From an uncultured Gammaproteobacteria bacterium (GTDB lineage Bacteria; Patescibacteriota; Patescibacteriia; UBA9570; JBBTWU01): a stretch of DNA of 64,000 nt. The DNA lies in the NCBI GenBank assembly GCA_964364425.1, contig CAYIMB010000002.1:17436-81435 (forward strand). The letters run 5' to 3'. Below are positions 4,405-52,415 of the stretch, in pieces. The number at the start of each line of letters is the position of its first letter. The first letter of the stretch is position 1. A program made the translations under genes and the position numbers. The notes beneath the pieces were generated by a model. That model saw nothing but the letters and a program-made list of their open reading frames with translations, ran no database searches and was not told the DNA's origin.

Positions 4405-4406
4405 TG

Positions 4407-4416
4407 TAAATCGATT
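4407..4416. repeat. AAATCGATTT palindrome (TAAATCGATTTA), 2 nt upstream of the minus-strand TTG start
   Basis: Exact 10-bp palindrome. Confidence 0.9.
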
Positions 4417-4424
4417 TACTCTTT

Positions 4425-4473: not shown

Positions 4474-4935
4474 TCAATGTGCGAAGGGGTCTACTGGGGC
4501 GGGGTGGAAGCCACCTCGCTGGCCTTGGCCGGGGGTTGCCATGAGGGGCCGCGGAGGACGCTTGCGCTCGGGCTCCGTTGGCAGCTCGCGGTAGGCCATG
4601 ATCAGGGCCTTGGCCTCCTTGACCTTGCCCTGGAGCTGCTCGAACTTGGCCACCCGGTGCATGCGCTCCCAGATCGCCAGGGTGGTGAATCCGGAGGAGT
4701 CCAGGTGACACTCGGTGAGCAGATGCTCCAGGCGGTTGACCTTGCTCTCCAGCGTGCCCAGCACAGACGAATCCTGCTGGAGCTGGAAGGCCAGGCTGAC
4801 CAGCTCACTGGCGAGCTGGGTGATGCCGTCCATCTCCTGCTCCCAGTTGGACAGAATGACGGTGTTGTTGACCTGCTGCAGCACCCCGGACAGAGCCAGG
4901 GCCGCGGTGAGCTTGATGTGGATGAGGCGTGCCAA
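4474..4935 (-). CDS. Hypothetical protein, GC-rich (paralog of 3865-4404)
   Basis: 153-aa ORF. GC-rich. Homologous C-terminal block to the neighbouring gene. Confidence 0.5.
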   Translation of the reverse strand: MARLIHIKLTAALALSGVLQQVNNTVILSNWEQEMDGITQLASELVSLAFQLQQDSSVLGTLESKVNRLEHLLTECHLDSSGFTTLAIWERMHRVAKFEQLQGKVKEAKALIMAYRELPTEPERKRPPRPLMATPGQGQRGGFHPAPVDPFAH

Positions 4936-8528: not shown

Positions 8529-8601
8529 ATCTACTCACAGAATCAAATCGATTTTTACGGGATTTGATGCTCTGAGCAGAGGAGGATGGTTGGCGGTTCC
8601 A
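8529..8601 (+). repeat. Direct repeat R1 (73 nt; contains AAATCGATTT and an ATCAAATC/GATTTGAT hairpin)
   Basis: Matches 9387-9460 with one substitution and a 1-nt T indel. Confidence 0.85.
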
Positions 8602-8620
8602 TGAAAGTCAAGACCTAAAA

Positions 8621-8682: not shown

Positions 8683-9000
8683 TTACACGCCTCGTTCTAG
8701 AGCCACCAATTTGGCAAATGGTTGTAAGAGTTGCCTCAGTTGACTGAGTGATACCCCGTATTCGCTTGTGTTTTGGCTCAAATCTGCAATCACTTCGTAC
8801 AACCGTCGCAGTTCTTTGCGTTGTTTTGCCGGTGCTCCACCAAAGGCGGAGAAACTGGCCAACTCCAACGCTCTAAATAGGCAGCTCTGGGCATGCTGTT
8901 GATCATTTTTTGCTTGCAAAGATTCCGCCCGCGCTAACTCACTCTCAATGTTCATGAGTTGTGTGGCCAAAGAAAACGTAGCCCAACGTTCAGCCGTCAT
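8683..9000 (-). CDS. Hypothetical helical protein (105 aa), second gene of the cassette
   Basis: ORF overlapping the upstream gene by ATGA (8997-9000). Confidence 0.45.
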   Translation of the reverse strand: MTAERWATFSLATQLMNIESELARAESLQAKNDQQHAQSCLFRALELASFSAFGGAPAKQRKELRRLYEVIADLSQNTSEYGVSLSQLRQLLQPFAKLVALERGV

Positions 9001-9344
9001 AACGCCAGCCGCTCAGTAATCACGGCCGCTACTTGCTGTTGAATAGCCGGATTTTGAATCAAGGTTTGTGTATTGCCTTGTTTGGGCCTGATGTTGATCA
9101 AAGACGTAAATTCCACCTGCTCTCCTTGAGGCCGCCCCGGAAAAATATTTGCTCCCCAGACATTTTTTTGTTTTGAACCTGAATCTAACAACACTGCCTC
9201 CGCATCTGCATGCAACTCACCACCAATGGCCAGAATTTTTTTATCAATATCCACTACCACCTTGACCATATCGCCGAAGGTGTCTTGAGCTAAGGCCAGA
9301 ACTTGTTCTTTTGGAAGTTTGTCGGTAACGATTTGAATTTCCAT
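8997..9344 (-). CDS. Hypothetical protein (115 aa; resembles conserved DUF-type small proteins, ...DMVKVVVDIDKKILAIGGELHADAE...)
   Basis: ORF. DUF-type family assignment is from memory only. Confidence 0.45.
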   Translation of the reverse strand: MEIQIVTDKLPKEQVLALAQDTFGDMVKVVVDIDKKILAIGGELHADAEAVLLDSGSKQKNVWGANIFPGRPQGEQVEFTSLINIRPKQGNTQTLIQNPAIQQQVAAVITERLAL

Positions 9345-9386: not shown

Positions 9387-9460
9387 TTCTACTCACAGAA
9401 TCAAATCGATTTTTACGGGATTTGATGCTCTGAGCAGAGGAGGATGGTTGGCGGTCCCAT
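9387..9460 (+). repeat. Direct repeat R2 (74 nt)
   Basis: See R1. Confidence 0.85.
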
Positions 9461-9476: not shown

Positions 9477-10229
9477 CTACCGAACGGCCGTCCAGACCCC
9501 CATGTCGTCGCCGAAGGGCACGGCCAGGCCCACGTAGATCCGGCACGTGTCGCCGGAGCCGCTGCTGCTGGTCTTCTCGTAGAGGGTGACCGTGTGGTCG
9601 TCCGACGTGACGGTGAAGCCGCCGCAGTCGTCCGACCAGTTGGCGCCGGAAGACCACTCGGCCTGGATGTCCACCCACGAGTGGTCGCTCAGGTCCGTGG
9701 TGGACGGGCTGAACATCAGGGTGTCCGTGGACGCGGACACGCTGGCCGACGCGGAGCCGCCGGACCCGTACCAGGCCCAGATGGTGGCGGGGTAGGTGAG
9801 GCCGCCGCTTGCGTCGCGGGTGACCACAATCCTGAGGACCGTGGTAGCGCTGTCGCCCGTGTCCACGACCGCGGTGTCGGTCACGGAGGTGTCCGCGGTG
9901 TCGCCGGTGCCGTCGCAGTCGGTGTCCACGCCGTCGGTCGGATCCTCGGTCGCGCCGGGGTTCACCGTGGCGTCGCGGTCCGCGCAGTCGCCGCCGAACG
10001 GGGAGTACCCGCGGGGGCGCCGGGTGGCCCAGAGGTCGGAGCCGGGCGCGCCGTAGCCGTCGCGGTCGCCGTCCCACCAGTAGTGGGTGATGACGATCCG
10101 GCTGGTACGGGACAGCGCGGTGTTGCGGACTTCCATGGTCTCGGCGCGGTCGTTGGCGGGGGCCTTGGTCTCTACGACCGGGGCGGTGGAGCGGTCACAG
10201 GCCGCCAGAATCAGAAGCAGGGACGACAT
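9477..10229 (-). CDS. GC-rich lipoprotein with Asp-rich MopE-like putative metal-binding repeats
   Basis: Signal peptide plus lipobox LAAC. Motif DCADRD..VNPGATE..DG.DTDCDG. Foreign-looking GC-rich codon usage. Confidence 0.6.
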   Translation of the reverse strand: MSSLLLILAACDRSTAPVVETKAPANDRAETMEVRNTALSRTSRIVITHYWWDGDRDGYGAPGSDLWATRRPRGYSPFGGDCADRDATVNPGATEDPTDGVDTDCDGTGDTADTSVTDTAVVDTGDSATTVLRIVVTRDASGGLTYPATIWAWYGSGGSASASVSASTDTLMFSPSTTDLSDHSWVDIQAEWSSGANWSDDCGGFTVTSDDHTVTLYEKTSSSGSGDTCRIYVGLAVPFGDDMGVWTAVR

Positions 10230-10463
10230 GGGGTTCTCCCGGAGAATGAGTTTGGCCCTGAAGATGGCACCGAACTCAAGTGAAGGTCATTTCAAGCTGC
10301 GGTTGGCGTTTCTTAGGTACGTGTGAAACCTCCCCAAAAGCACTCAACACCCTTAGGGCAGGGCCAGCAAAAATACATGACAATCGAACCCTTGTCAATA
10401 ATGGGCCTTAATGCCAAAAACACTCAAAATTGGCTTGTCCTAAGGAAATCCACCCCAGTAGAC

Positions 10464-10491
10464 TTTACAAACTAAAAAATGTTGTTATAAT
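10464..10491 (+). promoter_or_regulatory. Putative tuf promoter TTTACA-16-TATAAT
   Basis: Hexamers read directly, about 60 nt upstream of the tuf ATG. Confidence 0.45.
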
Positions 10492-10550
10492 CAGCTTTGT
10501 GTTTCGAGATAATCGAAATTATTTTTACTTAATTCCTAAAGGGAACCTCA

Positions 10551-11741
10551 ATGGCTGACAAGTTTGACCGCTCAAAACCGCACGTCAACGTGGGTACCAT
10601 TGGTCACGTTGACCATGGAAAAACCACCACCACAGCTGCTATTTTAGCTGTGCTTAACGCTGTCGGCGGTAAGGCTCAACAGAAATCTGTTGACCAAATA
10701 GACGCTGCTCCAGAAGAAAAAGCACGTGGTATTACTATCAATACCGCTCACGTGGAGTATGAGACTGAAAAACGTCACTATGCTCACGTGGACTGTCCAG
10801 GTCACGCTGACTATGTGAAGAACATGATTACCGGTGCCGCCCAGATGGATGGGGCCATTTTAGTTGTGTCCGCCGCCGACGGTCCTATGCCTCAAACCCG
10901 TGAACACATCCTCTTGGCTCGCCAAGTCGGAGTGCCTTACATTGTGGTGTTCTTGAACAAAGTTGACCAAGTAGACGACCCAGAGTTGTTGGATTTAGTG
11001 GAAGTGGAAATTCGCGACTTGCTCAAGAAATATGAATTCCCAGGTGATGAAACACCAATGATCCGAGGGAGTGCCTTGAAAGCCTTGGAAAATCCAAAAG
11101 ATTCAGCGGCCAACAAGTGTATCTTGGACCTCATGAACGCCTTGGATACCTATATTCCAGAGCCAAAACGTGACGTAGACAAGCCTTTCTTAATGCCAAT
11201 TGAGGACATCTTCTCTATTGAAGGTCGTGGCACAGTGGTCACCGGACGGATTGAACGTGGCATGATCAAACTCAACGAAGAAGTGGAAATTGTGGGTTTG
11301 ACTCCAACCGCTAAAACAGTCGTGACCGGTATTGAAATGTTCAACAAACAGCTGGACGAAGGTCGTGCCGGTGATAACGCTGGTGTGTTGTTGCGTGGTA
11401 CCAAGAAAGAAGAAGTTCAACGTGGACAAGTCTTGGCAAAGACCGGAACCATCACTCCTCACACTGAATTTGAGACAGAAGTATATATTCTGTCCAAAGA
11501 AGAAGGCGGCCGTCACACTCCATTCCTAAAAGGCTATAAACCTCAATTCTACATGCGGACCACTGATGTCACAGGTGAGGTGATATTGCCAGAAGGAACT
11601 GAAATGGTGATGCCAGGTGACACCATGAAGCTCAGCGTTAAGTTGATTGCCCCAGTCGCCATGGAAGAACAACAACGCTTCGCCATCCGTGAGGGTGGTC
11701 ACACCGTAGGCGCCGGAGTTATTACTAAGATTCTCAAATAA
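10551..11741 (+). CDS. tuf: Elongation factor Tu
   Basis: GHVDHGKTT and DCPGHADY motifs. 396 aa. Confidence 0.95.
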
Positions 11742-11757
11742 CATAAGAACACTATAG

Positions 11758-11796
11758 CTTCGCCCCCGGTAGGGCAGAGAAAACCCGGGGGCGAAG
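11758..11796 (+). terminator. 12-bp GC hairpin after tuf (CTTCGCCCCCGG...CCGGGGGCGAAG), weak U-tract
   Basis: Perfect inverted repeat read from sequence. Confidence 0.4.
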
Positions 11797-11812
11797 TAGC
11801 ACTTTCAACACC

Positions 11813-12172
11813 ATGACCACTAAGACAGTCAAGAAGCCAACTGAAGTCAATGGAAATGAGGAGCCAAAGTCTCGTATTCGCGTGAAAATTCGCGCTTACG
11901 ACTCCAAGATCATTGATCAGTCCACCAAGACTATTATAGAAACGGCTTTACGCAGCGGAGCCACTATTGCAGGTCCAGTGCCGTTGCCTACAGAAAAGCA
12001 CCGCTACACTGTGCTCAAATCGACCTTTGTGCATAAGAACGCACGGGATCAGTTTGAAATGCGGGTACATAAGCGCTTGATTGATATAGTCAACCCAAAC
12101 GCCAAGACCATTGATGACCTGTCTCACCTGAACCTTCCCTCAGGTGTTGACGTGGAAATGAAAATGGTATAA
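11813..12172 (+). CDS. rpsJ: 30S ribosomal protein S10
   Basis: S10 homology. Confidence 0.9.
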   Translation: MTTKTVKKPTEVNGNEEPKSRIRVKIRAYDSKIIDQSTKTIIETALRSGATIAGPVPLPTEKHRYTVLKSTFVHKNARDQFEMRVHKRLIDIVNPNAKTIDDLSHLNLPSGVDVEMKMV

Positions 12173-12307
12173 TCTCCGTCTACTTCAGTCTGGTCCGGGA
12201 CCGGTGGTGCGGATCTAAGGGCTCTCAGCCCAAGGAAATCACCCACATGCCCAAAGCCAGAAAGGACAAATAATTACATATAAACCCAAACCATACCCCA
12301 AAAATAG

Positions 12308-12359
12308 CGGTGATCTACGTATATCAAACCATTGGCGTATGTAGACCACCGTTTTTCTT
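12308..12359 (+). terminator. Attenuator-like hairpin + GTTTTTCTTT, 10 nt upstream of rplC
   Basis: 13-bp stem with one mismatch followed by a T-run, in the 196-nt rpsJ-rplC spacer. Confidence 0.35.
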
Positions 12360-13627: not shown

Positions 13628-14023
13628 ATGGCTATCAATTTTTGGAAGAGAAACAAGAAACCAGAGGTAGAAACTCCAGAGGAAACAAAGGAGAGAGCAG
13701 CTACCGCCGCTCCGGCCAAAGGAACACCAAAGGCAGCCTCTTCCACCGGCGACAGCAAAAATGCTCCTCAAGTGTTACTGCGTCCAATGTTGACTGAAAA
13801 GTCCACTCGGGCCGGGGTGTATTATTTCCAGATTCCAATTTCTGCCAACCGAGCTGAAGTGAAGAAGGCGGTGAAATCTGTATACGGTGTAACTCCAGAA
13901 AAAGTAAACATCATTAACCGCTTAGGCAAGAAAGTGACTTTTGGCGGACGTGGCGGATCTAGGTCTGACTGGAAGCGCGCCATTGTGATGCTCAAAAAAG
14001 GTGAATCAATCTCTGTAGAATAA
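13628..14023 (+). CDS. rplW: 50S ribosomal protein L23 (N-terminal ~40 aa extension)
   Basis: L23 core at the C-terminus. Position in operon. Confidence 0.85.
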   Translation: MAINFWKRNKKPEVETPEETKERAATAAPAKGTPKAASSTGDSKNAPQVLLRPMLTEKSTRAGVYYFQIPISANRAEVKKAVKSVYGVTPEKVNIINRLGKKVTFGGRGGSRSDWKRAIVMLKKGESISVE

Positions 14024-14025
14024 GT

Positions 14026-14877
14026 ATGGCTATCAAGATATTAAAACCAGTCACCGCCGGAACCCGCAACTCAAGCGTGCAGGATTTTTCTGATATCACC
14101 AAGTCCAAACCAACCAAGAGTTTGACGGTTTGGTTGAAAACCAAAGCCGGTCGCAACAACCAAGGTAAAATTACCACCCGTCATCATGGTTCTGGTGTGA
14201 AGCGCTTGTACCGCATGGTGGATTTCAAAATGCAAAAGTACGACCTACCTGCGAAGATTGAATCCGTTGAATATGACCCATACCGCAGTGCTCGCATCAT
14301 GCTGCTCAAATATCCAGACAGCTCAGTCACTTATGCACTTGCTCCTGTTGGCGTGAAGGTTGGAGAAACTATTATCTCTTTCTCTGGAGAAGGTGAAATC
14401 AAAACTGGTAACCGCTTGATGTTGAAACACATTCCAGTCGGAATGGCCGTTCACAACGTTGAGATGACTCCAGGTAAAGGTGGGGAAGTGGTTCGTTCCG
14501 CTGGTTCTCTGGCTACCATCATGGCCAAAGAGGGAACTATGGTCCAAATCAAAATGCCAAGTGGTGAAATTCGGAATTATATGGATACTTGCCGAGCATC
14601 TATTGGACAGGTTTCAAACGTAGAATGGAGAAACGTACGTTGGGGCAAGGCTGGTCGTAACCGTTTACGCGGTATCCGTCCTACCGTTCGTGGTAAAGCT
14701 CAGAATCCAGTTGACCACCCACACGGTGGAGGTGAAGGTAACCAACCAATTGGTTTGAAGCATCCAAAGACTCCATGGGGTAAACCAGCTTTGGGTGTGA
14801 TTACTCGTAAAGATCATAAGCGTTCAGATGCATTCATTGTACGTAGGCGTCCAAAACGTATTGGTAAGATTAAATAA
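14026..14877 (+). CDS. rplB: 50S ribosomal protein L2
   Basis: L2 homology. Confidence 0.95.
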
Positions 14878-35166: not shown

Positions 35167-37761
35167 ATGGAAAAGCTGACAGGCTTAACGCAGGCTGAGG
35201 CTGAGGGCAGGTTGTTGACGTATGGAAGGAACCGGCTGCCGGAAGAAAAAAAGGATCACTGGTGGTTGATTTTGTTGCGCCAGATCAACAGCGCCATGGT
35301 GTACGTATTGTTAGTGGCTTCAGTCGTGTCATTTGCCTTGGGGGATACGGTTGACGCCGGAGTGATCTTAGCTGCGGTGATTCTGAATGTGGGCGTGGGT
35401 TTTGCTCAGGAGTTTAAGGCTGAGCAGTCTTTGAATCGCCTGAAGACCCTGGTGGCAAAGATGGCCTTGGTGCTCAGACAGGGTAAGGAGAAATTGGTTA
35501 TTGCAGAAGAAATTGTTCCGGGGGATGTGTTGTTGCTCCGGGCTGGTGACCACGTGTCGGCTGATGCGCAGGTGATGTGGGCTGAGGCTTTTGAAGTTTT
35601 GGAGTCAGCGCTCACCGGTGAGTCTGAAGCCGTAGAAAAAAATACCAACCCAGTGGCTGAGACTGCCCCCCTGGGTGATAGGACCAATATGCTGTTTGCC
35701 GGCACAAGCGTAGTGAATGGACAGGGGAGGGCGCTAGTTACGGCTACGGGCGCTCAGACTGAACTAGGTAAGATTGCCAGCGCTTTACGTGAAACTTCTG
35801 AACGTCCAACTCCGTTGCAAAAACAGTTAAATCGATTTTCCCGCTTCTTGGCCGCCGTGATTGGGTTGTTAACCCTAGTTTTGTTTATTGTTGGCATAGT
35901 GGTTGGCCGGCCGTTGATAGAAACATTTACTTTAGCCGTAGCTATTGCCGTCAGCGCTTTGCCTGAAGGGTTGATTATAGGAGTCACGGTTATTTTAGCC
36001 ATAGGCATGAAGCGTATCTTGCAACACAAGGGCTTGGTACGCCGACTAGCTTCAGCTGAGACGCTTGGTTCCGTGACCGTGATTTGTACAGATAAAACCG
36101 GAACATTGACTGAAGGGAAAATGCGCGTAGACCATTGGGTTACTTGGGATCATGCCCTAAAGTTTCACCGTGAACATCCGGAGAAAGAGCTAGCTGAACT
36201 GTTCATGGTTATCACCATTGGTTTGCTCAATAATGATGCCAAGGTATTAAACCCTGAAGAAGAAGCGGAACATTGGGAAATTACTGGTAACTTAACTGAG
36301 CGGGCGTTATTGTTTGCCGGAGCAACGCTTGGGCTAGATCACCAGAAATTACAGGAGGAACATCCACGCGTGCATGCCGTCCCGTTCAACTCCACCAGTA
36401 AAATTATGGCTACGCTCCATACTACACCGGAGCATAAACGGAAGTTGTACGTCAAAGGAGCGCCGGAGCGAGTGTTGGACATGTGCAGCAATATCTATGT
36501 GAATGGAAAGTCAGTGGTGATGACCAAACAGCATAGAACACGTTTGACGGAAGATTTTTCCAACATGAGCATGCAAGGGTTGCGCGTGTTGGCCTTGGCT
36601 TATGCAGACCTACCTAAATCCGTTGAAAAGGTCACAGATGAAACTTTTGCTGATTTGGTGTTTGCCGGATTTTTAGGCATTAAAGACGGCTTACGTCCAG
36701 AAGCAAAATCCGCTCTGCAAGCGTGTGAAAAAGCTGGAATTACAGTCAAAATGATCACCGGAGACCACAGACTCACCGCTCAGGCCATAGCCCAAGAGCT
36801 AGGACTTCCCGCCGGCCAATCCCAGATCATTGACGGGGCTGAACTGGCTCAACTGAGTGAACCAAATTTGGTCAAACGAATTTTAGGTATTTCAGTCTTT
36901 GCCCGCGTCTCTCCGCAAGATAAGTTTCGGATTGTGAAAGCTTTGCAAAAGGCCGGCCAGGTGGTGGCCATGACCGGTGATGGCGTGAATGACGCTCCGG
37001 CGCTGAAAGCTTCTGATATAGGCGTGGCCTTGGGCAGCGGAACGGACGTAGCTAAAGATGCGGCTGATTTGATTATTTTGGATGATAATTTTCAAACTAT
37101 TGTCACCGCCGTCAGAGAAGGTCGGGTGATTTTTGATAACATCAAAAAGTCAGTCTTATATTTGGTCTCAGCTTCCTTTAGTGAAATTGTATTAGTCGCT
37201 TTGTCTATTCTGGTTGGACTTCCAGTCCCTTTAACAGCGGTTCAAATTTTATGGATTAACTTGGTGACGGATACCTTCCCTAATTTAGCCCTGACTCAAG
37301 AACCGCAGGAAAGCCAAGTCATGAATGAACCACCTCGTTCACCCAAAACTCGGATTGTGAACAAAGACTTAGCCAAAATGACTGCCCTTGTCTCCGGTGT
37401 GAGTGGTTTATCCTGCCTAGGTCTGTTTGTGCTGGCACTGTATAGTAGTGATTCAACTGATTACGCCCGCACCATTACCTTCGCTGCATTAAGTCTGGAA
37501 TCTTTACTCTTTGCGTTTTCCGTGAAGTCGCTCAGACTGCCCATTTGGAAATCGTCCTTTTTTAATAATAAGAGCCTACTGCTAGCTGTCGGTGTGGGCG
37601 TTCTCATTATTGTTTTGGCCACCACACTTGTTCCGTTGCAACGCATCCTGCATACTACCTCCATAGGAGCAGTGGAATGGGGGATGATTGCGGGTATTTC
37701 AATTCTAGCCCTAGGTTTAATAGAGGCACTCAAAATGATTTTTATTAAAAGACGCACATGA
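35167..37761 (+). CDS. Cation-transporting P-type ATPase (P2-type, Ca/Mg-like)
   Basis: CTDKTGTLT and MTGDGVNDAPAL. ATG 35167. Confidence 0.85.
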   Translation: MEKLTGLTQAEAEGRLLTYGRNRLPEEKKDHWWLILLRQINSAMVYVLLVASVVSFALGDTVDAGVILAAVILNVGVGFAQEFKAEQSLNRLKTLVAKMALVLRQGKEKLVIAEEIVPGDVLLLRAGDHVSADAQVMWAEAFEVLESALTGESEAVEKNTNPVAETAPLGDRTNMLFAGTSVVNGQGRALVTATGAQTELGKIASALRETSERPTPLQKQLNRFSRFLAAVIGLLTLVLFIVGIVVGRPLIETFTLAVAIAVSALPEGLIIGVTVILAIGMKRILQHKGLVRRLASAETLGSVTVICTDKTGTLTEGKMRVDHWVTWDHALKFHREHPEKELAELFMVITIGLLNNDAKVLNPEEEAEHWEITGNLTERALLFAGATLGLDHQKLQEEHPRVHAVPFNSTSKIMATLHTTPEHKRKLYVKGAPERVLDMCSNIYVNGKSVVMTKQHRTRLTEDFSNMSMQGLRVLALAYADLPKSVEKVTDETFADLVFAGFLGIKDGLRPEAKSALQACEKAGITVKMITGDHRLTAQAIAQELGLPAGQSQIIDGAELAQLSEPNLVKRILGISVFARVSPQDKFRIVKALQKAGQVVAMTGDGVNDAPALKASDIGVALGSGTDVAKDAADLIILDDNFQTIVTAVREGRVIFDNIKKSVLYLVSASFSEIVLVALSILVGLPVPLTAVQILWINLVTDTFPNLALTQEPQESQVMNEPPRSPKTRIVNKDLAKMTALVSGVSGLSCLGLFVLALYSSDSTDYARTITFAALSLESLLFAFSVKSLRLPIWKSSFFNNKSLLLAVGVGVLIIVLATTLVPLQRILHTTSIGAVEWGMIAGISILALGLIEALKMIFIKRRT

Positions 37762-38646: not shown

Positions 38647-39093
38647 ATGCTGGCGACTGCACTGCCAACTGTGACCCTGAAGCCCCCCGCGGGTTTCGTC
38701 CACGATCAGCGTTCCCAGGGCTGGGAGCTCCTAGAAGAAGGCCCGAAGGTCGAAGGAGAGCCCATCCTGGACTTTCTAGGCTTCCTGCGGGAAGGCGAGA
38801 CCTACATCAACGGTGAGACCGTCCTTGCCCGCGCCCTCGAGATGGAAGGGACCGAGAGCGGTCAGCACCACCTCGAGCGGCTGCTCGCCCAGGCCGCCAG
38901 CATCCCCGCGGAGCTGCGCTCGTTCTACCTCGTCGCCACCGGCACCAAGTGGCGGTACCCCGACGGTTACGTGTGCGTCCCGTACCTGCGCTTCGTCGGC
39001 GGCCAGTGGGTCCTGCTCTTCTACGGGGTCGGCAACGACCGCTGGAGCGTCGGCGATCGGGTCGTCCGCGTCTGCAAGCAGCCTGGGTCCTAG
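38647..39093 (+). CDS. GC-rich small protein, cassette copy A (paralog of 50966-51400)
   Basis: Aligns along its whole length with copy B (…GW.L…GEP.L.F..FL..GET…MEG…H.ER.L…IP.ELR.FYLV..GT.WR…VP.L…). Consensus SD AAGGAGGTG. Confidence 0.6.
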   Translation: MLATALPTVTLKPPAGFVHDQRSQGWELLEEGPKVEGEPILDFLGFLREGETYINGETVLARALEMEGTESGQHHLERLLAQAASIPAELRSFYLVATGTKWRYPDGYVCVPYLRFVGGQWVLLFYGVGNDRWSVGDRVVRVCKQPGS

Positions 39094-39244: not shown

Positions 39245-39298
39245 TGCTACTTGGTGCAACAGACTGGTGGTGATACTGATGGGGAATCCCGCCTTGGT

Positions 39299-39308
39299 AA
39301 ATCGATTT
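39299..39308. repeat. AAATCGATTT palindrome (TAAATCGATTTA) between cassette A and asnS
   Basis: Exact palindrome. Confidence 0.9.
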
Positions 39309-39368
39309 ACAAGTAAGGAAACGGCTTTAACTAGACAAACTACGGCAAAATAGGCAGAATATGCAGGT

Positions 39369-44815: not shown

Positions 44816-45853
44816 ATGGCAAAAAAGATTCGCATTGCAATTAACGGGTTTGGACGAATTGGACGCACCACCTTTAAGGCGGCTTTGGAACATGAAAATG
44901 AAGTGGAAGTAGTAGCCTTGAATGATTTGGGTTCAGCGGAAAACATGGCCTACTTGTTGAAGTACGACACCAACTACGGGATATATGGACGTGAGATAGG
45001 ATTTGGTACAAATTTTTTGAGTGTGGACGGAAAAAAGTTTAGTTTGTACGCGGAGAAGGATCCTAAGAGGTTGCCCTGGAAAAAGCTCCAGGTGGATGTG
45101 GTGTTGGAATGTACCGGACGTTTTACCAACAAGGATGACGCCGGGAGGCATCTGACTGCCGGAGCTAAACAGGTGATTATTTCTGCGCCGGCTAAATCCG
45201 GAGGACCAATTGGTACGTTTGTGTTGGGCGTAAACGCTCACGCAGGCCGGGCTTGGAAAAAGGCCAAGGGAACAGAGGTGATCTCTAACGCCTCATGTAC
45301 CACTAACTGCATTGCTCCGGTGATGGCGGTGTTGGAGAGTGCCTTTGGAGTGAAGAAAGCACTCATGACCACGGTACATTCGTACACGGCGGATCAAAAC
45401 CTGGTAGATGGCCCACATACAGATTTCCGTCGCGGCCGTTCTGCCGGAGCCAACATAGTTCCTACTTCTACCGGGGCGGCTCTGGCCACTACAGAAACCA
45501 TCCCCAGCCTGAAAGGAAAATTTGATGGGATAGCCATTCGCGTTCCGTCCACTACAGGCTCTCTATCTGATATTACCGCCGTGGTGAAAAAGAAAGTGAC
45601 CGTTCAGTCAGTCAACGCTGCGTTCAAGAAAGCAGCTAAGAATCCGCTATTCAAAGGCATCTTAGCGGTGAGTGAAGAAGAGCTGGTGTCCAAAGATATT
45701 GTGGGTCGTCCGGAATCAGCGATTGTGGATTTGGCCTTGACCATGGTAGTAGGAGATGACCTGGTGAAAGTGTTTGCTTGGTATGATAACGAATGGGCGT
45801 ATTCGTTACGTTTGGTTGAAGAAGCCATCTTGGTGGGTAAGGCGGTTGCCTAA
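44816..45853 (+). CDS. gap: Glyceraldehyde-3-phosphate dehydrogenase
   Basis: NGFGRIGR and SCTTNC. Confidence 0.9.
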   Translation: MAKKIRIAINGFGRIGRTTFKAALEHENEVEVVALNDLGSAENMAYLLKYDTNYGIYGREIGFGTNFLSVDGKKFSLYAEKDPKRLPWKKLQVDVVLECTGRFTNKDDAGRHLTAGAKQVIISAPAKSGGPIGTFVLGVNAHAGRAWKKAKGTEVISNASCTTNCIAPVMAVLESAFGVKKALMTTVHSYTADQNLVDGPHTDFRRGRSAGANIVPTSTGAALATTETIPSLKGKFDGIAIRVPSTTGSLSDITAVVKKKVTVQSVNAAFKKAAKNPLFKGILAVSEEELVSKDIVGRPESAIVDLALTMVVGDDLVKVFAWYDNEWAYSLRLVEEAILVGKAVA

Positions 45854-45881
45854 TTTAGACAGGAGAGTACACTGGCGCGTT

Positions 45882-47489
45882 ATGGAAACTGAATTATCTA
45901 GACCCGGTATACCTAGACACAAACCCCAAGAGTTTGAGCATGTAGTCATGGTTGTGGTTCCAGAGGGAGCCATCCAAGCAGATTTGCAACAATTGGAGAA
46001 GCGCGGGGTGAAGGTGCGTGATCAAGTAGTCACGGTTGAATATGAATACGGAGATAACGACATGGCCCTGGCTGATTATCAGTTTTCAGACGGAGCGTTT
46101 TGTTTGGTGAAAAAGTATGATAGCAATGTGCATTGGCCGGATGTTGTGGCTGAAAAGAGCAAGGCACAAGAATGGGCCGGTGATGTTCCTTTTTTGGTCA
46201 AAAAGAAACCTGAGAGCATTTCAACTATCCCGTCTGAAGGCTCACGTTCGCCTGAACCGCCACCCCCTAGTCCGCCTCCAGCGCCGCCTCCTGAAACTCC
46301 ACCGGCCTCTCCCACCCCGCCTGAGTGGCCATCTTTTGAATCCGAGAGAGAGTGGGAGTTATTGCAAAGGTATTGGAGGTTAGTGGCTCAAATTGAAGAT
46401 GCCCAACTGAAGATAGAACAGGCAAAGATTACCGAACGGAGACAGGAAATTCCTATTCAAACACGACGTTTAGAGATTGGACAAAAAAATTTACAACAAT
46501 TTCTAGTTCATCATCCGGAGTACACAAACCTTCCCAAGCCTTTGGAGGTTGCCAGTATAGATTTAGCGAGCGTAGAGGGCAGGAGGCGAGCCAAGGCGTT
46601 GTTGTTAGATAGTGATTTATCTCCAGTCGAAGCGGGCAAGCGCATCATAGCCATTGAGAAGGCGGGAGCTAAAATCGAATTACATCATCCAAAGTTGGAA
46701 CAGGGAGTTGGCACCAGTGCTGTGCGGCCTCCGCTCAAAACGGTCATGACTGACTTGAAGGAGGCACAGTACCGTGTTGGCCGTTTGAATAGTTTAGGGT
46801 TGTTGAGTCAACTCCAACATGGGGACACCCGGCATAATAATTTGCTGCGCTTAAAATCCACACGCCAGAGTTTAGAATATATTTTAAAACGATTTTCACC
46901 TCCCCCTCACGCCGACTCCTCCCTTAGCCGAGATTTTTTAGCTTTGCTGCATGGAGTGGTGGACGCCGTGAAGAAGGTTGAACAAGGGACCCAAAAAAAC
47001 TTTTTGTCTCGCTGGTGGTCACAGAATGAACTGATTCAACAACACAGAAAAATTGGTCAGGGCTTAAAAAAGTTAGAACAATTTACCCAGGAACACAGGG
47101 AGTTTGTGTACGCTTGCGCCCAGATCGAATTTCAACTAAGGTGGGCCAACACTTGGAGTTTTCATGTTCTCCGTCACCGTCCAGCAGTTCTCCGCCTGGA
47201 ACATCCTGTACCTGTTCATGATCCTGCTCGGCACCCTGATCCTGCTGTCCGCGCTGGTCATCCAAGACTGGCTCTGGATGAACAGGGAGACCGGTGTCTC
47301 GGCAGGAACGGCAGTCATGAACTTGCGCTTCTGGCAGTTAGCCTCCTGCTTGGTGGGGATCTCCTCCGCCTACGGAGCAGTCCCGCCGGTGCTGTTTGTG
47401 ACCGTCCCGACCTGGTTCCTCCTGACCCGCATGGTCGGGATGCCCCTGAGCGCGGCCATGATCGCTGCGGCGTGGTATGTGGCGTGTAG
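45882..47489 (+). CDS. Hypothetical Pro-rich protein
   Basis: ATG 45882. After ~47160 the frame runs into GC-rich DNA and translates to Arg/Pro junk until a chance stop. Confidence 0.45.
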   Translation: METELSRPGIPRHKPQEFEHVVMVVVPEGAIQADLQQLEKRGVKVRDQVVTVEYEYGDNDMALADYQFSDGAFCLVKKYDSNVHWPDVVAEKSKAQEWAGDVPFLVKKKPESISTIPSEGSRSPEPPPPSPPPAPPPETPPASPTPPEWPSFESEREWELLQRYWRLVAQIEDAQLKIEQAKITERRQEIPIQTRRLEIGQKNLQQFLVHHPEYTNLPKPLEVASIDLASVEGRRRAKALLLDSDLSPVEAGKRIIAIEKAGAKIELHHPKLEQGVGTSAVRPPLKTVMTDLKEAQYRVGRLNSLGLLSQLQHGDTRHNNLLRLKSTRQSLEYILKRFSPPPHADSSLSRDFLALLHGVVDAVKKVEQGTQKNFLSRWWSQNELIQQHRKIGQGLKKLEQFTQEHREFVYACAQIEFQLRWANTWSFHVLRHRPAVLRLEHPVPVHDPARHPDPAVRAGHPRLALDEQGDRCLGRNGSHELALLAVSLLLGGDLLRLRSSPAGAVCDRPDLVPPDPHGRDAPERGHDRCGVVCGV

Positions 47490-47541
47490 CTTCGGCTACT
47501 TCTACTGCATCTACGCCCCGCGCAAGCTGCAGACTTTCTAG
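47164..47541 (+). CDS. GC-rich small membrane protein (4 TM)
   Basis: Convincing TM ORF in a different frame inside the GC-rich segment ~47160-47600. Confidence 0.5.
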   Translation: MFSVTVQQFSAWNILYLFMILLGTLILLSALVIQDWLWMNRETGVSAGTAVMNLRFWQLASCLVGISSAYGAVPPVLFVTVPTWFLLTRMVGMPLSAAMIAAAWYVACSFGYFYCIYAPRKLQTF

Positions 47542-47671
47542 GTCCGGGGAGCAGTTCGCACGTTTGAACGCGCCGAGATAGTAGGCAGTCAGCCTCTCTC
47601 GGTGCGTTCTTCAGTTTCAAAGTTTTTATGTTCACCAATCACCAGATTGGCCAGGTCCAAAAGTTATCCAT

Positions 47672-47695
47672 AAGACCGCGAAACGGTCTTTTTAC
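47672..47695 (+). terminator. Rho-independent terminator AAGACCG-CGAAA-CGGTCTT + TTT
   Basis: Read directly. Confidence 0.6.
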
Positions 47696-47707
47696 GTTTT
47701 TACCATG

Positions 47708-47717
47708 GTGACCCCAC
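47708..47717. repeat. GTGACCCCAC, 10-bp direct repeat of the tRNA-Glu 3' end (49368-49377)
   Basis: Exact 10-mer. Brackets the lower-GC AAA-ATPase segment. Confidence 0.4.
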
Positions 47718-47810
47718 TGCATGGTTTCCAGAACTAGTTAATCAAAGAGAGTATATATGGAGTTTGATTGAAAATCTACAGTCTGCGATGGTTGGAGGTA
47801 GTCAATAGTC

Positions 47811-47934
47811 CTATACAAAAAATACACTACTTTTATGCCTAAATTAGGCATTTTTATTGTGTAAATTATCTTTTGTATACTAGACTATACAAAAGATAAC
47901 ACTATCTGTATACTCTGTAGTATAAGGATAAAAT
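47811..47934. promoter_or_regulatory. AT-rich region with nested palindromes (TTATCTTTTGTATA-CTAGAC-TATACAAAAGATAA; GCCTAAATTAGGC; TATACT..AGTATA) upstream of the AAA ATPase gene
   Basis: Inverted repeats read directly. Operator-like. Confidence 0.45.
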
Positions 47935-49371
47935 ATGAATCAAATTCTACTGCAATATGTCCAAAACCAATTAGTTCGTGCCGGGCAGCGACTTAACGCG
48001 AATACTATTGATGCTCAGGGTAAAAAGTACCCACAACGCAATATCTACATCAAAATAAAAAAACACGTTGATGATTTTATAAGCGGAAAGTCATTAACGC
48101 GCTGGATAGTTATTCCGGGCCTGAGAGGTGTAGGGAAGACTACGGCTGTGTCTCAAATTTATTTTTACCTTACCCAAGATCAAAAAGTAAAAAGTAATAA
48201 TATCCTCTACACCTCACTAGATGAAGTCACAGATTTAGGTGGAAACCTACGAGAAGTTTTGGGAACATATGAGAAGGTACTTGGAAAGAGTTACGAGCAG
48301 CAGAATGAGCTCATTTTTATTTTACTTGATGAAGTGCAAGTTGACCCTAAGTGGGCATCAATACTTAAAATTCTTCACGAGAAATCAAAAAAAGTCTTTA
48401 TTATTTGTACTGGATCCTCTGCTGTAGAATTACAATCAAACGCCGATGCAGAACGACGAGCAATTTTTGAACGGTTATTTCCCATGAGTTTTACCGAATT
48501 TCAGATGGTGCAACGCGGCATATACCCCACAAAGGGACTGAAGTATGATTTACAACAAGCTTTGTATCAAGCATCTTCTGTAGAAGTAGCCTTTCAGAAA
48601 CTACAGGCATTAAACCAAGTAATCTTATCATACTGGTCAAAGGTTGATGAATTATCAGTTTCTGAATTTCTTAAAGTGGGGACACTCCCATTTGCGTTGA
48701 GCTATTCTGATGAATATCAGGTCTACCAAGCTATCAATCGTTTACTTGAACAGGTCATTGATAAAGATATCCGAGCACTTGGCAGTTTTAGTAATGAAAC
48801 GTTAAGTAAAATTAAACAGCTACTTTTTTTACTAGCAGATAGCAACGGTTCACTCGCTTTTTCAACCATCGCTAAGACTTTGGATATGCAACGACCAACT
48901 CTGAATAGCATCTTTGATGCCCTTGAAAAAACAGAGTTACTGATAAGAGCTTTACCACAAGGAGCAAACAATAAGCGAGTTACAAAACCATCTAAGTTTT
49001 TATTTATGAGCCCTGCTCTACGGTTAGCATTATTGAGTATTTCTGGACTCAAACAGACATTCGATACTCAACAAGGAGCTTTACTAGAAGATGTAGTAGC
49101 ATTGCATTACTATCGAGAGTTTGTAACAAAGCGTAAGGCTTCACTCATGTATGATGCAACTGAGGGTGGTGCAGACTTTATTGTGAATTTTATCCAACAC
49201 CGTAGGATTGTTGTTGAGGTTGGGATGGGGAGCAAAGATTCAAAACAAGTAGTGAAAACAATGAGTAAAGTTCAGAGTGATTATGGAGTAGTAATTAGCT
49301 CTACAGAACTAGGGGTTGATGAAATAAACAGAATAGTTTTTCTACCTATTAAGTTCTTTTTATTGATGTGA
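47935..49371 (+). CDS. AAA+ ATPase, COG1373/DUF4143-like
   Basis: Walker A GLRGVGKTT and Walker B LLDEVQ. Visibly AT-richer than its neighbours. Confidence 0.6.
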   Translation: MNQILLQYVQNQLVRAGQRLNANTIDAQGKKYPQRNIYIKIKKHVDDFISGKSLTRWIVIPGLRGVGKTTAVSQIYFYLTQDQKVKSNNILYTSLDEVTDLGGNLREVLGTYEKVLGKSYEQQNELIFILLDEVQVDPKWASILKILHEKSKKVFIICTGSSAVELQSNADAERRAIFERLFPMSFTEFQMVQRGIYPTKGLKYDLQQALYQASSVEVAFQKLQALNQVILSYWSKVDELSVSEFLKVGTLPFALSYSDEYQVYQAINRLLEQVIDKDIRALGSFSNETLSKIKQLLFLLADSNGSLAFSTIAKTLDMQRPTLNSIFDALEKTELLIRALPQGANNKRVTKPSKFLFMSPALRLALLSISGLKQTFDTQQGALLEDVVALHYYREFVTKRKASLMYDATEGGADFIVNFIQHRRIVVEVGMGSKDSKQVVKTMSKVQSDYGVVISSTELGVDEINRIVFLPIKFFLLM

Positions 49372-49440
49372 CCCCACCGGGAATCGAACCCGGATTTCAG
49401 CGTTGAGAACGCCGCGTCCTAACCGTTAGACGATAGGGCC
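49369..49440 (-). tRNA. tRNA-Glu (anticodon CTC)
   Basis: Cloverleaf folded by hand on the reverse complement. Anticodon loop TTCTCAA. T-arm CCGGGTTCGATTCCCGG. Confidence 0.75.
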
Positions 49441-49510
49441 ATGCCGCGCTAGACTATCCAAAAAGCTACCAACCGTCAAACCTGAACACTTAAATTCCTT
49501 AAGGATTTAG

Positions 49511-49526
49511 CTGTGCATACGCACAG
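49511..49526. promoter_or_regulatory. CTGTGCATACGCACAG palindrome (CTGT-N8-ACAG) upstream of rlmH
   Basis: Shares 22 nt with 8652-8670. Confidence 0.4.
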
Positions 49527-49544
49527 ATTACAACCAACAACTTT

Positions 49545-50018
49545 GTGTACTCATTTACCCTTCTCGTTGTCTCCGCTAGCAAGCCCGGTCCCTGGAAAGA
49601 CCTGGCGCAGGAATACCAGACGCGGCTGACTCCGTATGCCAAATGCAAATTGATTGAAATACCTCAAGCGGTTTTTTCTTCTGCAGCAGAGCGCCAGAAA
49701 GTGCAGGCGCAGGAGGCTGAGGTCTTAAGAAAATCGATCTCCAAGGGAGCATATACCGTAGCCTGTGATGAACGGGGGAAATTTTTCACCTCCACCCAGT
49801 TTGCGCAGCAACTCAAGACGTGGTCAGAACAAGAAACCAGAAACATCACGTTCCTCTTGGGCGGCCCGCTGGGCCTGCAACCTGCGTTGGTGCAAACGGT
49901 ACAGGCTAAGCTGGCCCTCTCCAGCTTTACTTTTCCACATGACCTGGCCCGGGTGGTTCTCCTAGAGCAACTCTACCGCGCTATGACCATCCTCAAAGGC
50001 AAAACCTATCATTACTAG
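49545..50018 (+). CDS. rlmH: 23S rRNA (pseudouridine1915-N3)-methyltransferase RlmH
   Basis: SPOUT family. C-terminal ...LEQLYRAMTILKGKTYH. Confidence 0.8.
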   Translation: MYSFTLLVVSASKPGPWKDLAQEYQTRLTPYAKCKLIEIPQAVFSSAAERQKVQAQEAEVLRKSISKGAYTVACDERGKFFTSTQFAQQLKTWSEQETRNITFLLGGPLGLQPALVQTVQAKLALSSFTFPHDLARVVLLEQLYRAMTILKGKTYHY

Positions 50019-50128
50019 CGGCGACTACGGTTGCGTTTGACAAAACAAAAAATAGAGAGCAGAACAAGCTTGGCGCAAACCTCTGCGCTCCTGGTCACAA
50101 GCCAGATTCTTACAACCCGGATCAACAG

Positions 50129-50653
50129 ATGTTGGCCCTGCTCCTGTCCGCCTGTTCCAAACTAGCGCTGGAGGACTGCACTGACCGCCACCACGAGCCC
50201 CGCAACTCCGACACGCACAGCACCTCCGACGGCATCTCGACCAACTCCACTCCGGCCGAGCAGGGTGCCCCCTGCCCTCAGCGCACTGACCAGCGCACGG
50301 GCAACGGGGCCATCACCCTGACCTTGGAGCTGGACAAGCCGGAAACCTTCACCCTGCGTCCGGTCACTGGCCTCACGGTGGAGGATACCTACACCGTCCC
50401 CAACACACACGTCCTGGGCTACAACCCGGAGACCGGGGCTGAGCTGTTCGTGGGGGAGCAGGCAGTGCTCTACTACTGCGACACTGACTTCTGGTTCTAC
50501 TGGGGCGATCTGGACGTGAACCACGTCATGGACTCGCGGGGGAGCGGCCTCTACCACAGCTCACAGCGGATGTACAACGAGGACAGCACCCTGCGTGAGA
50601 CCCGTCAGGTGGACTTCCGGATCCGCGTCACGGGCCTGGTGTTTCGCCAGTAG
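50129..50653 (+). CDS. GC-rich lipoprotein (lipobox LLSAC), unknown function
   Basis: Signal peptide plus Cys. GC-rich. Confidence 0.5.
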   Translation: MLALLLSACSKLALEDCTDRHHEPRNSDTHSTSDGISTNSTPAEQGAPCPQRTDQRTGNGAITLTLELDKPETFTLRPVTGLTVEDTYTVPNTHVLGYNPETGAELFVGEQAVLYYCDTDFWFYWGDLDVNHVMDSRGSGLYHSSQRMYNEDSTLRETRQVDFRIRVTGLVFRQ

Positions 50654-50965
50654 TTGCACCTTTGAGAGGACCTCCACTCTCAGTTCCATGTCGATTTTCA
50701 TGCGCAGAAAAATCGCCATAGAACTGTTCACCACTTGCTGGTGAATTACCGCCCAACGCTGAGTCTGCTGGATTGTGGTGCATGTAGTTTAGAATGTACG
50801 GTGATGCCCAAACTATGGACATTTCCTTCTGAACCTGCTATTATCCGGTGTCGCACTTTGATATTAAGCTATTTACAGTTGATTGCAGGCCTAAGGCCAT
50901 ATTTAACCCTATATAAGGGTTTTATGTGTATTTAGATCTGCAATCAAGCAGAAGGAGGTGTCCCC

Positions 50966-51400
50966 ATGAGCAGCCCCTTGGCGCTCCCTGGCATGAAGCT
51001 GAAGGCCCCCAAGGGCCTGATCTACGACAAGCGGAAGGAGGGATGGGCCCTCACCAAGGAGGGCGACCAGATCGAAGGTGAGCCCGACCTGGAGTTCGTG
51101 CCCTTCCTCCAAGGCGGCGAGACCGCCATCGTGGGAACCACCATGGTGGAACGCGCCGTCGCCATGGAGGGCCTCACCAGCCAGTACCACGCTGAGAGGA
51201 TGCTCCAGCAGCAGGACCAGATCCCGCCGGAGCTGCGGCCGTTCTACCTGGTCTTCGCCGGTACGGAATGGCGGGACTCCGACGGCGACCTCTGCGTCCC
51301 GTGCCTCTTCTGGTACGGCGACGAGTGGATCCTGTACTTCGACTGGCTCGCCCGCGGGAGCTGGGGCTCCCGCGCTCGGCTGGTTCGTCTCCGCAAGTAG
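50966..51400 (+). CDS. GC-rich small protein, cassette copy B (paralog of 38647-39093)
   Basis: See copy A. SD AAGGAGGTG. Homologous 3' tail 51401-51560. Confidence 0.6.
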   Translation: MSSPLALPGMKLKAPKGLIYDKRKEGWALTKEGDQIEGEPDLEFVPFLQGGETAIVGTTMVERAVAMEGLTSQYHAERMLQQQDQIPPELRPFYLVFAGTEWRDSDGDLCVPCLFWYGDEWILYFDWLARGSWGSRARLVRLRK

Positions 51401-51636
51401 CTTCGGCCCTTGGATCCTTTGGGAGTTGGCCCTTTTGGCTCCCTTGGATTCTTGGTCCGTTTTGTTCGCTTGCACCTTGGCTGTGCCCCCGTATGGACAG
51501 ATCTCACAAGGATCAGTTCAGCGGGGGTGTTGTCTTTTATATGAATATTGATACATAGGTGGGACTCCAACGATCGGCTGGTTTGTCTCCGCAACTCACT
51601 TCATTCTTCCGCCTCCATGGGCGGAGGTTTCAGGCG

Positions 51637-51666
51637 CTTGACACCGGGCAGGGGAGTTTTTATACT
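51637..51666 (+). promoter_or_regulatory. hrcA promoter TTGACA-18-TATACT
   Basis: Perfect -35. Immediately upstream of CIRCE. Confidence 0.55.
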
Positions 51667-51670
51667 GCAA

Positions 51671-51697
51671 TTAGCAGTCTCAAGCAGAGAGTGCTAA
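51671..51697 (+). promoter_or_regulatory. CIRCE operator TTAGCAGTC-N9-GAGTGCTAA
   Basis: 8/9 + 9/9 match to the HrcA-binding inverted repeat TTAGCACTC-N9-GAGTGCTAA. Confidence 0.8.
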
Positions 51698-51707
51698 CCA
51701 GAACACC

Positions 51708-52415
51708 ATGAATCCGCTTACAGACCGTCAAAAACAGCTATTTGGAGCCATTGTGGATGAATACGTATCCACAGCGCGGCCTATTGCCTCAGGGACCTTG
51801 GCTAAAGCGTATGGCTTGGATGTGAGTTCTGCCACGGTGCGGAATGATATGGCGGTGTTAGAAGACCAAGGTCTGATCCACCAGCCACATACCAGCGCAG
51901 GCAGAATTCCAACCGAGCAAGGGTACCAGTTTTATGTTGAGACTTTTGTGTCAGAGACTACTCTGTCAGCCGCTCAATTCAAAAAGTTAAGCGCATCTCT
52001 AGATGCTGAGGTAGAAGCCACCATCAAGCATATGGCTAAGACGGCTGCGGATTTATCCATGGAAGCGGTGTTCATGAGCGTTAAAACCGAATATACTTTT
52101 TATACTGGAATTTCAAATGTGTTGAAGCAACCGGAATTTATGGATAGAGCGCTATTGTTGTCGATTAGTTCAATTGTAGATTCCTTAGATGATGTGGTGT
52201 CTCAAATGGTGAGCAAAGTAACAAGTCATGTAGATGTGTTGATTGGTCGGGAAAACCCTTTTTCACCAGAGCTCTCAGTTATTATGACTGAGTATGAAAC
52301 AAAATCGGGTGCTACCGGCCTGATTGGACTCTTGGGTCCTATGCGAATGGAATATAAGCAAAATATAGCGGTCGTTAAATCTGTGCAAAAACTTTTAAAC
52401 ACTTATGAACAATAA
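51708..52415 (+). CDS. hrcA: Heat-inducible repressor HrcA (short form, 235 aa)
   Basis: N-terminal winged-helix homology. Confidence 0.8.
   Translation: MNPLTDRQKQLFGAIVDEYVSTARPIASGTLAKAYGLDVSSATVRNDMAVLEDQGLIHQPHTSAGRIPTEQGYQFYVETFVSETTLSAAQFKKLSASLDAEVEATIKHMAKTAADLSMEAVFMSVKTEYTFYTGISNVLKQPEFMDRALLLSISSIVDSLDDVVSQMVSKVTSHVDVLIGRENPFSPELSVIMTEYETKSGATGLIGLLGPMRMEYKQNIAVVKSVQKLLNTYEQ

Follow-up and report, generated by a model that had tools for sequence, protein, structure and literature searches.

Loss of a stop codon, rather than insertion of a GC-rich block, probably underlies an apparent gene fusion in a groundwater Patescibacteria genome

In a stretch of 64,000 nucleotides (nt) from a groundwater Patescibacteria metagenome-assembled genome (MAG; contig CAYIMB010000002.1, positions 17,436 to 81,435; hereafter called the window), a gene for a hypothetical proline-rich protein appeared to run on into a GC-rich block carrying a membrane-protein gene of its own. 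A preliminary description, made from the letters alone, had proposed that the Pro-rich gene was either truncated or fused by insertion of the block or that two genes overlapped by about 325 nt. Comparison with relatives and with a second assembly pointed to another origin: the 126-residue extension of the Pro-rich protein very probably comes from a one-base loss of its stop codon, TAA to TAC, and not from the neighboring block. The frame that starts at 45774 or 45882 was indeed found to be free of stops as far as the TAG at 47487-47489, and the 535-residue product of 45882-47489 is deposited as GenBank MEK7539830.1. All coordinates are those of the window unless otherwise indicated, and features are collected in Table 1.

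The native end of the Pro-rich protein was located by comparison with its orthologs. A search of 5.8 billion protein clusters returned three relatives besides the protein itself, namely, P0002 (83% identical, 413 residues), P0003 (62%, 417 residues), and P0004 (63%, 405 residues). The alignments ran end to end and covered 70 to 76% of the query, and all three proteins ended in QEHREFV (QFA in one), corresponding to codon 409 of the window frame (47106-47108). Residues 410 to 535 had no counterpart in any of the three alignments, and thus the suspicion that the last 126 residues do not belong to the protein was borne out; the comparison with orthologs that the preliminary description had suggested turned up no matching extension. 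Since the native C terminus is complete to codon 409, the Pro-rich gene is not truncated. The order of GAPDH followed by the Pro-rich gene is kept in three related loci (L001 to L003), of which L001 is the closest relative, with ∼85% nucleotide identity. The order common to the window and the relatives is P-type ATPase, a 241-residue protein, two class II aminoacyl-tRNA synthetases, ScpA, ScpB, S11 peptidase, GAPDH, and the Pro-rich gene, and in L002 the Pro-rich gene is followed by tRNA-Glu, rlmH, hrcA, grpE, hsp20, and dnaK. An alignment-based scan of GTDB genomes and JGI metagenomes found no further orthologous loci, and the protein is apparently lineage-specific. It consists of an N-terminal β-rich region, a Pro-rich linker at approximately residues 125 to 155, and a helical C-terminal half; an AlphaFold2 model built from four sequences gave a predicted local distance difference test score (pLDDT) of 51 and a predicted template modeling score of 0.29. 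No significant match was obtained in Pfam, NCBIfam, PHROGs, or PADLOC, and the best profile match in PDB (E = 0.096) was noise.

The codon that follows GTG at 47106-47108 is TAC in the window, whereas the aligned codon is TAA in L001 and L002 and TAG in L003. The site was also covered by L004, a 1977-bp contig of ENA assembly ERZ1292636 (Hain_PNK108_H32), which is an independent assembly from the same well. Compared with window positions 46824-48800, this contig showed a single mismatch in 1977 bp, at position 47111, where A in place of C gives TAA, and its gene calls end the Pro-rich gene at this TAA and list the 125-residue membrane protein as a separate gene. An ancestral stop, a point substitution, and otherwise identical flanks were therefore all found, as expected of a stop loss. 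Judged from the aligned relatives, the TAA of L004 is the apparent ancestral state, and as it matches that state, an error in L004 is very unlikely. The TAC is present in a 35-kb ENA contig (L006; 35,042 bp, cov_5) that is identical to the window, and the same 535-residue protein is also recorded on an 83.8-kb (83,838 bp) NCBI contig. An exact look-up of the 409-residue form showed that the full-length TAA allele is absent from the protein collection. DNA identical to the window occurs in ENA assemblies named Hain_H32, which we take to be well H32 of the Hainich Critical Zone Exploratory; candidate phyla radiation (CPR) genomes from that site have reportedly been described (PMC8672522).

Downstream of the lost stop, the GC content in 200-nt windows rose from 0.465 at 47000-47199 to 0.55 to 0.645 across 47100-47599 and was 0.31 to 0.37 over the next gene. 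A 150-nt scan delimited a segment at 47154-47619 with a GC content of 0.60 against a window mean of 0.479, in agreement with the rise from about 47160 that had been noted before. The second open reading frame (ORF), at 47164-47541, has GC contents of 0.50, 0.45, and 0.90 at the three codon positions, a pattern seen in real genes from a high-GC background, and its GC content at third codon positions (GC3) lies ∼7.5 standard deviations above the 58 other ORFs of the window, which are mostly background genes (GC3 of ∼0.46 ± 0.06). Its 125-residue product contains one strong and three moderate hydrophobic segments by hydropathy, and a single-sequence AlphaFold2 model placed helices at residues 6 to 43, 47 to 69, 74 to 91, and 98 to 117, with a low pLDDT of 59; the early description of a protein with four transmembrane segments thus agreed with the predictions. 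The GC-rich stretch is a gene in its own right, equipped with a Shine-Dalgarno sequence and a terminator, and it occupies a variable slot bounded by the Pro-rich gene on the left and by tRNA-Glu on the right.

The membrane-protein gene is identical in L004, L006, and the Logan contig L005. The closest relative, L001, carries the block, the spacer (83% identical, with 9 of 52 positions differing; GC content of 0.50), and the ATG, and the first 52 codons of its copy are 85% identical at the protein level. Its homology to the window then skips from ∼47345 to 47584, a deletion of ∼250 nt that takes helices 2 to 4 and the stop codon, and the sequence after the deletion runs directly into tRNA-Glu. 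The gene is apparently decaying in L001, to judge from this alignment. As the window and L001 share the block, the gene is older than their divergence. L002 and L003 lack it; in these two the flanking genes are syntenic, and the homology to the window ends exactly at the stop codon of the Pro-rich gene. That the GC-rich stretch holds its own gene, and that the block after the Pro-rich gene is accessory, was therefore upheld. The 125-residue protein found only itself both in the 5.8-billion-cluster index and in a full HMMER pass over 1.84 billion representatives, where five other matches were hydrophobic-segment noise in very large proteins. It had no significant match in Pfam, NCBIfam, PHROGs, or PADLOC and no homology to the GC3-rich membrane proteins of L002, and matches of the two focal proteins to RecA_C and PsbM were at chance level. 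The block is thus an accessory ORFan, its product most likely being a small integral membrane protein.

Third codon positions of this gene diverged little. Between window positions 47164-47340 and L001 positions 1445-1605, third-position divergence was 0.077, compared with 0.24 to 0.26 in the Pro-rich and GAPDH genes (binomial P = 0.002), while positions 1 and 2 diverged equally. This suggests either that synonymous sites are constrained or that the shared history of the block is younger.

The whole extension from TAC comprises 126 codons (residues 410 to 535). It is a compositional accident and not a domain, and it is presumably without function. GC contents of 0.83, 0.52, and 0.47 at its three codon positions are the signature of a shadow frame and mirror those of the membrane-protein frame, with codon position 1 of the tail coinciding with codon position 3 of the membrane-protein gene (90% G/C; C62, G50, A7, and T6 over 125 codons). 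Because stop codons begin with T and T is rare in this register, few stops occur and the frame stays open; within 47164-47541 there is one stop in the tail frame and there are nine in the other off-frame. When the codons of the membrane-protein gene were permuted synonymously (n = 5000), the tail frame stayed open for at least 107 codons, the length observed, in 90% of cases, so that the long open frame is not surprising, but recoding of the membrane protein with host codon usage gave the same result in only 21%. What had been described as an Arg/Pro-rich tail is enriched in Leu, Arg, Ala, Pro, Val, Gly, Asp, and His, as follows from its being the shadow frame of a GC3-rich gene. In L001, the tail frame is shut by two TAA codons, the second of which corresponds to CAA at 47133-47135 of the window; L004 has CAA here, as in the window.

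The apparent fusion would accordingly have arisen in a few steps. The 409-codon gene would have lost its stop by a third-base change, TAA to TAC (Tyr), and the frame would then have crossed the 52-nt spacer, which is stop-free in the lineage of the window. It would have entered the membrane-protein gene in the register in which its first position is the third position of the neighbor, and this T-poor register would have let it run 126 codons to the TAG at 47487-47489. Ribosomes reading through would presumably pass over the start site of the membrane-protein gene.

An insertion of the block at about 47160, by which the native 3′ end and stop were lost or shifted and the gene was truncated or fused, is a highly improbable alternative. 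It would explain why GC content rises at about 47155-47164 and why L002 and L003 lack the block, and the fall in third-position divergence from L001, from 0.24 in the flanks to 0.08 in the block, could mean a separate history. However, the native C terminus is intact to codon 409, the point change that opened the frame lies 52 nt before the GC content rises, and neither direct nor inverted repeats flank the block (47112-47700). Above all, L004 and L001 have the same block and spacer behind an intact stop, so that the block cannot have caused the fusion; by these alignments it was evidently in place, behind that stop, before the split from the closest sampled relative. The proposed coincidence of the insertion boundary with the ATG held only weakly, in that the GC content rises and third-position divergence drops there, but homology with L002 and L003, which lack the block, breaks off 52 nt earlier, at the stop codon. 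The proposed overlap is real and measures 326 nt (47164-47489); it is a product of the stop loss and not an evolved two-gene arrangement. A selected overlapping pair, or a functional C-terminal extension, in which both frames would be translated and kept, is even harder to credit. In its favor, the deposited genome has the frame open and the 535-residue product is annotated by NCBI, but none of the three orthologs has the extension, the composition of the tail is that of a shadow frame rather than of coding sequence, the open run is what 90% of permutations would give, and the same frame is stopped in L001 (twice), L002, L003, and the sister assembly L004.

If the extension stems from the TAC, it may still be asked whether the TAC exists in the organism. 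We consider it likely that the aquifer population really carries it as a derived allele. The converse, that TAC is a sequencing or assembly consensus error, that the organism has TAA, and that the 535-residue ORF exists only in the database record, appears unlikely but keeps an appreciable share of the probability: the stated contig coverage is only 5× and 2×, base 47111 is the sole difference between otherwise identical 1977-bp assemblies, and every relative has a stop at the site. Set against this, the 535-residue product, and with it TAC, is on record for two contigs (35,042 and 83,838 bp), an Illumina error at 5× would require several concordant miscalls, and a segregating stop-loss polymorphism in a natural population is unremarkable. 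Some points do weigh against a stop loss next to a genuine membrane-protein gene. The contig names point to low coverage (cov_5 where the codon is TAC, cov_2 where it is TAA), the two contigs with TAC may have been built partly from the same reads, L005 begins at 47122, downstream of the stop site, and the membrane-protein gene is argued from composition, signals, and one partial relative only.

The right-hand side of the variable slot is formed by tRNA-Glu, which was the only RNA family found in 45500-51800 and which is also present in L002 and L003. Its 3′ end has received an AT-rich insert bounded by a 10-bp direct repeat, GTGACCCCAC, with the right copy at 49368-49377 in the 3′ end of the tRNA gene. 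The insert carries an AAA_14/DUF4143 ATPase gene at 47935-49371 (Pfam AAA_14, 7e-24; DUF4143, 2e-11) that also matches the PADLOC candidate defense family PDC-S01 at 2e-29. It is absent from L001, where the terminator adjoins tRNA-Glu, and from L002, and L003 has a larger version followed by an AEP-TOTE primase-helicase. This is the recognizable insertion of the region, and it is separate from the GC-rich block.

At least seven genes of the window have a GC3 of 0.85 to 0.95 (Table 1). L002 contains two membrane-protein genes (GC3 of 0.92 and 0.99) and one gene for a secreted protein (GC3 of 0.78), and L003 has no GC3-rich genes of this type. Such genes, with GC3 of 0.78 to 0.99 against a genome GC3 of ∼0.45, were located in variable slots between conserved housekeeping genes, and the small proteins that they encode are mostly membrane proteins, lipoproteins, or secreted proteins. 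Apart from the MopE motif in 9477-10229, no curated family was matched by those in the window. Between the window and L007, the GC3-rich genes diverged by 0.15, 0.13, and 0.15 at the three codon positions, whereas their housekeeping neighbors showed an excess at third positions.

One 144-residue family, which had four database matches, none from a named high-GC organism, is linked to a diversity-generating retroelement (DGR). Its member in L008 (gene GC3 of 0.79 in a contig of 35.6% GC) is the target of a canonical DGR at positions 10001-12323 of that contig. The variable repeat (10300-10429) and the template repeat (10805-10934) are 85% identical, the core mismatches are all at template adenines, and the template repeat is followed by an RVT_1 reverse transcriptase whose GC3, 0.30, is host-like. 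The window holds two paralogs of the family, 38647-39093 and 50966-51400, and a 46-nt remnant of the 3′ end of a template repeat (51557-51602), with no reverse transcriptase found in the window. For the 125-residue gene a DGR was not indicated, as no part of 47100-47650 is repeated elsewhere in the window.

Other observations concern the surroundings of these genes. A cassette of ∼780 bp including its flanks (50774-51553) is 87.5% identical in L007, where its genomic context is different. Between window positions 50035-50746 and L002 positions 13820-14550, the flanks (∼75 nt upstream and ∼95 nt downstream) are 83 to 84% identical, but the GC3-rich genes between them, encoding 174 residues in the window and 197 residues in L002, have different start sites and only 22 to 28% protein identity. 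From the sequences, this contrast would reflect either very fast divergence or allelic replacement within conserved flanks. A 61-nt direct repeat, 98% identical, occurs at 8542-8602 and 9400-9460 and brackets two minus-strand ORFs, 8683-9000 and 8997-9344, which overlap by 4 nt and lie beside the MopE-motif lipoprotein gene. A 14-nt perfect palindrome, GTAAATCGATTTAC, is exact at 4406-4419 and 39297-39310 and has two mismatches at 1973-1986 and 35827-35840. It is over-represented, with four sites against 0.23 expected, and also occurs in L002 (2771 and 3415) and at five sites in L007. In both the window and L002 it lies where the conserved gene order picks up again beyond a GC-rich island, immediately 5′ of a gene for an aminoacyl-tRNA synthetase. 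As a boundary mark of islands it was rejected, since it adjoins two islands but occurs elsewhere too and is not near the 47164-47541 block; it could serve as an operator or as a site of recombination.

Where the block came from is a separate question. Recent horizontal acquisition from a high-GC donor (host bacterium, plasmid, or phage), with slow decay to host composition, is put forward tentatively, at somewhat below an even chance. As in genomic islands, composition is deviant (GC 0.60 and GC3 0.90 against 0.479 and 0.46 ± 0.06), with the codon-position differences of genes from high-GC genomes, and presence is patchy, the block being missing from L002 and L003 and cut by the ∼250-nt deletion in L001. 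A sibling island gene, 9477-10229, has a MopE motif, and its reference-genome matches are mostly from Myxococcota or Deltaproteobacteria, with some from Candidatus Uhrbacteria; as a route to the donor these were set aside, being motif-level matches only (35 to 50% over ∼70 residues). Other signs of import were lacking. No donor homolog was found among the 1.84 billion representative proteins, in PHROGs, in viral contigs (IMG/VR), or in JGI metagenome DNA, where a 26-nt exact pattern of the block had no match. The block has neither a mobility gene nor an att-like repeat, the 10-bp tRNA-Glu repeat flanking the AT-rich insert instead, and no boundary repeats common to the GC-rich islands were found. 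Moreover, sibling GC3-rich families are confined to Patescibacteria, with GC3 of 0.79 to 0.91 in hosts of 36 to 48% GC, and one of them belongs to the active-looking DGR whose reverse transcriptase has a host-like GC3.

It is also conceivable, though we think it improbable, that the block belongs to a class of small, fast-evolving, lineage-restricted genes with GC3 of 0.79 to 0.99, encoding membrane proteins, lipoproteins, and DGR-target proteins among others, which are held at high GC3 in place, within Patescibacteria genomes of 36 to 48% GC, and were not recently imported from high-GC donors. Candidate forces, to which the same low probability applies, would be a GC bias in repair or conversion, acting at hypervariable slots prone to recombination, or selection at the level of synonymous sites. 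Maintenance in place is considered because no donor was found for the two families tested (the 125-residue protein and the 144-residue family), because divergence is equal at the three codon positions with GC3 remaining high, even in paralogs that are 48% identical, and because one DGR target is GC-rich while the reverse transcriptase that accompanies it is AT-rich and host-like. It is considered also because the 174- and 197-residue proteins are 22 to 28% identical inside ∼84% identical flanks and because the third positions of the 125-residue gene diverged three times less than those of its neighbors (P = 0.002). These divergence patterns fit simple recent import and decay poorly. A literature search for GC-rich islands or GC3-rich orphans in CPR/Patescibacteria, or for GC-rich DGR targets, found nothing pertinent.

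Table 1. Features of the Pro-rich gene region and GC3-rich genes of the window and of L002
Position	Strand	Feature	Basis or remark
45882-47108	+	Native Pro-rich protein coding sequence, 409 codons	Ortholog alignment and synteny
47109-47111	+	TAC at ancestral stop position; variable base 47111 (C; A in L004)	Relatives and sister assembly
47112-47163	+	Intergenic spacer, 52 nt; Shine-Dalgarno GGAG at 47155-47158, 5 nt before ATG of membrane-protein gene	Sequence
47112-47489	+	Non-native read-through tail, 125 codons after TAC, plus TAG	Composition; no ortholog carries tail
47164-47541	+	125-residue orphan membrane-protein gene, GC3 0.90, four predicted helices; listed among the seven GC3-rich genes	Composition, signals, partial relative
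47672-47700	+	Intrinsic-terminator-like hairpin and T-run, 3′ of membrane-protein gene	Kept in L001 directly before tRNA-Glu
47708-47717	.	Left copy of 10-bp direct repeat, displaced tRNA-Glu 3′-end fragment; left edge of insert	
47718-49367	+	AT-rich insert, GC ∼0.37, 1.65 kb, into tRNA-Glu 3′ end	Repeat-bounded; no insert in L001
49368-49440	-	tRNA-Glu (CUC), conserved right-hand anchor of variable slot	ARAGORN, Rfam
3865-4404	-	GC3-rich gene	Paralog of 4474-4935
4474-4935	-	GC3-rich gene	Paralog of 3865-4404
9477-10229	-	GC3-rich lipoprotein gene	MopE motif
38647-39093	+	GC3-rich gene	Paralog of 50966-51400 (48% identical)
50129-50653	+	GC3-rich lipoprotein-like gene	
50966-51400	+	GC3-rich gene	Paralog of 38647-39093
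L002 2065-2754	-	GC3-rich gene	
L002 2889-3323	-	GC3-rich gene	
L002 13806-14444	+	GC3-rich gene	

For the annotation, the consequence is corrective: the deposited MEK7539830.1 is a 409-residue protein with an accidental tail, and a 125-residue membrane-protein gene is hidden beneath the tail. The GenBank run extends from MEK7539830 (locus tag 01130, the Pro-rich gene) to MEK7539834 (01155, a 135-residue call of 50966-51400), with the AAA_14 ATPase, tRNA-Glu, rlmH, and the 174-residue protein in between and no slot for the 125-residue gene. That gene therefore appears to be missing from the GenBank annotation of the MAG, presumably displaced by the longer read-through ORF; it is called in ENA and Logan on contigs that keep the stop or begin 3′ of it. 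The case shows how, next to a compositionally foreign gene, a one-base change in a stop codon can add 126 residues to an ORF, which gene callers then favor. The locus itself is ordinary and chiefly of annotation interest. More deserving of further work are the recurring GC3-extreme genes, small and fast-evolving, of which this lineage carries many between its housekeeping genes, with at least one family a DGR target. Were their composition maintained in place, genome evolution in ultra-small symbiotic bacteria would have a new feature, and GC3-rich genes could mark proteins at the symbiont-host interface.

Among known systems, the locus resembles a nonstop mutation combined with the shadow ORFs of high-GC3 genes, in that a one-base stop change extends the frame to the first chance stop, the off-frame is open as T is rare, and the tail is of low complexity and rich in Arg, Pro, Ala, Gly, and Leu. 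Unlike the usual stop loss, the extension does not end in intergenic DNA but overlaps a neighboring real gene by 326 nt, and the tail is long only because that neighbor is compositionally foreign to a genome of 48% GC. The GC-rich block shares with atypical genomic islets (accessory ORFans beside a tRNA gene) its odd composition, patchy occurrence in relatives, bounded slot, and decay in a sister lineage. It differs from them in having no integrase, no flanking repeats, and no identifiable donor, and the repeat linked to the tRNA gene is part of the neighboring AT-rich AAA_14 insert; a GC3 of 0.90 in an ORFan without a homolog among ∼15 billion proteins is also unusual. Finally, the locus is like the suppression of a short gene by a longer ORF in gene calling, since GenBank names the 535-residue ORF and leaves out the 125-residue gene, but unlike a pure gene-caller artifact, its cause lies in the sequence, in the changed stop codon, and not in the caller alone.

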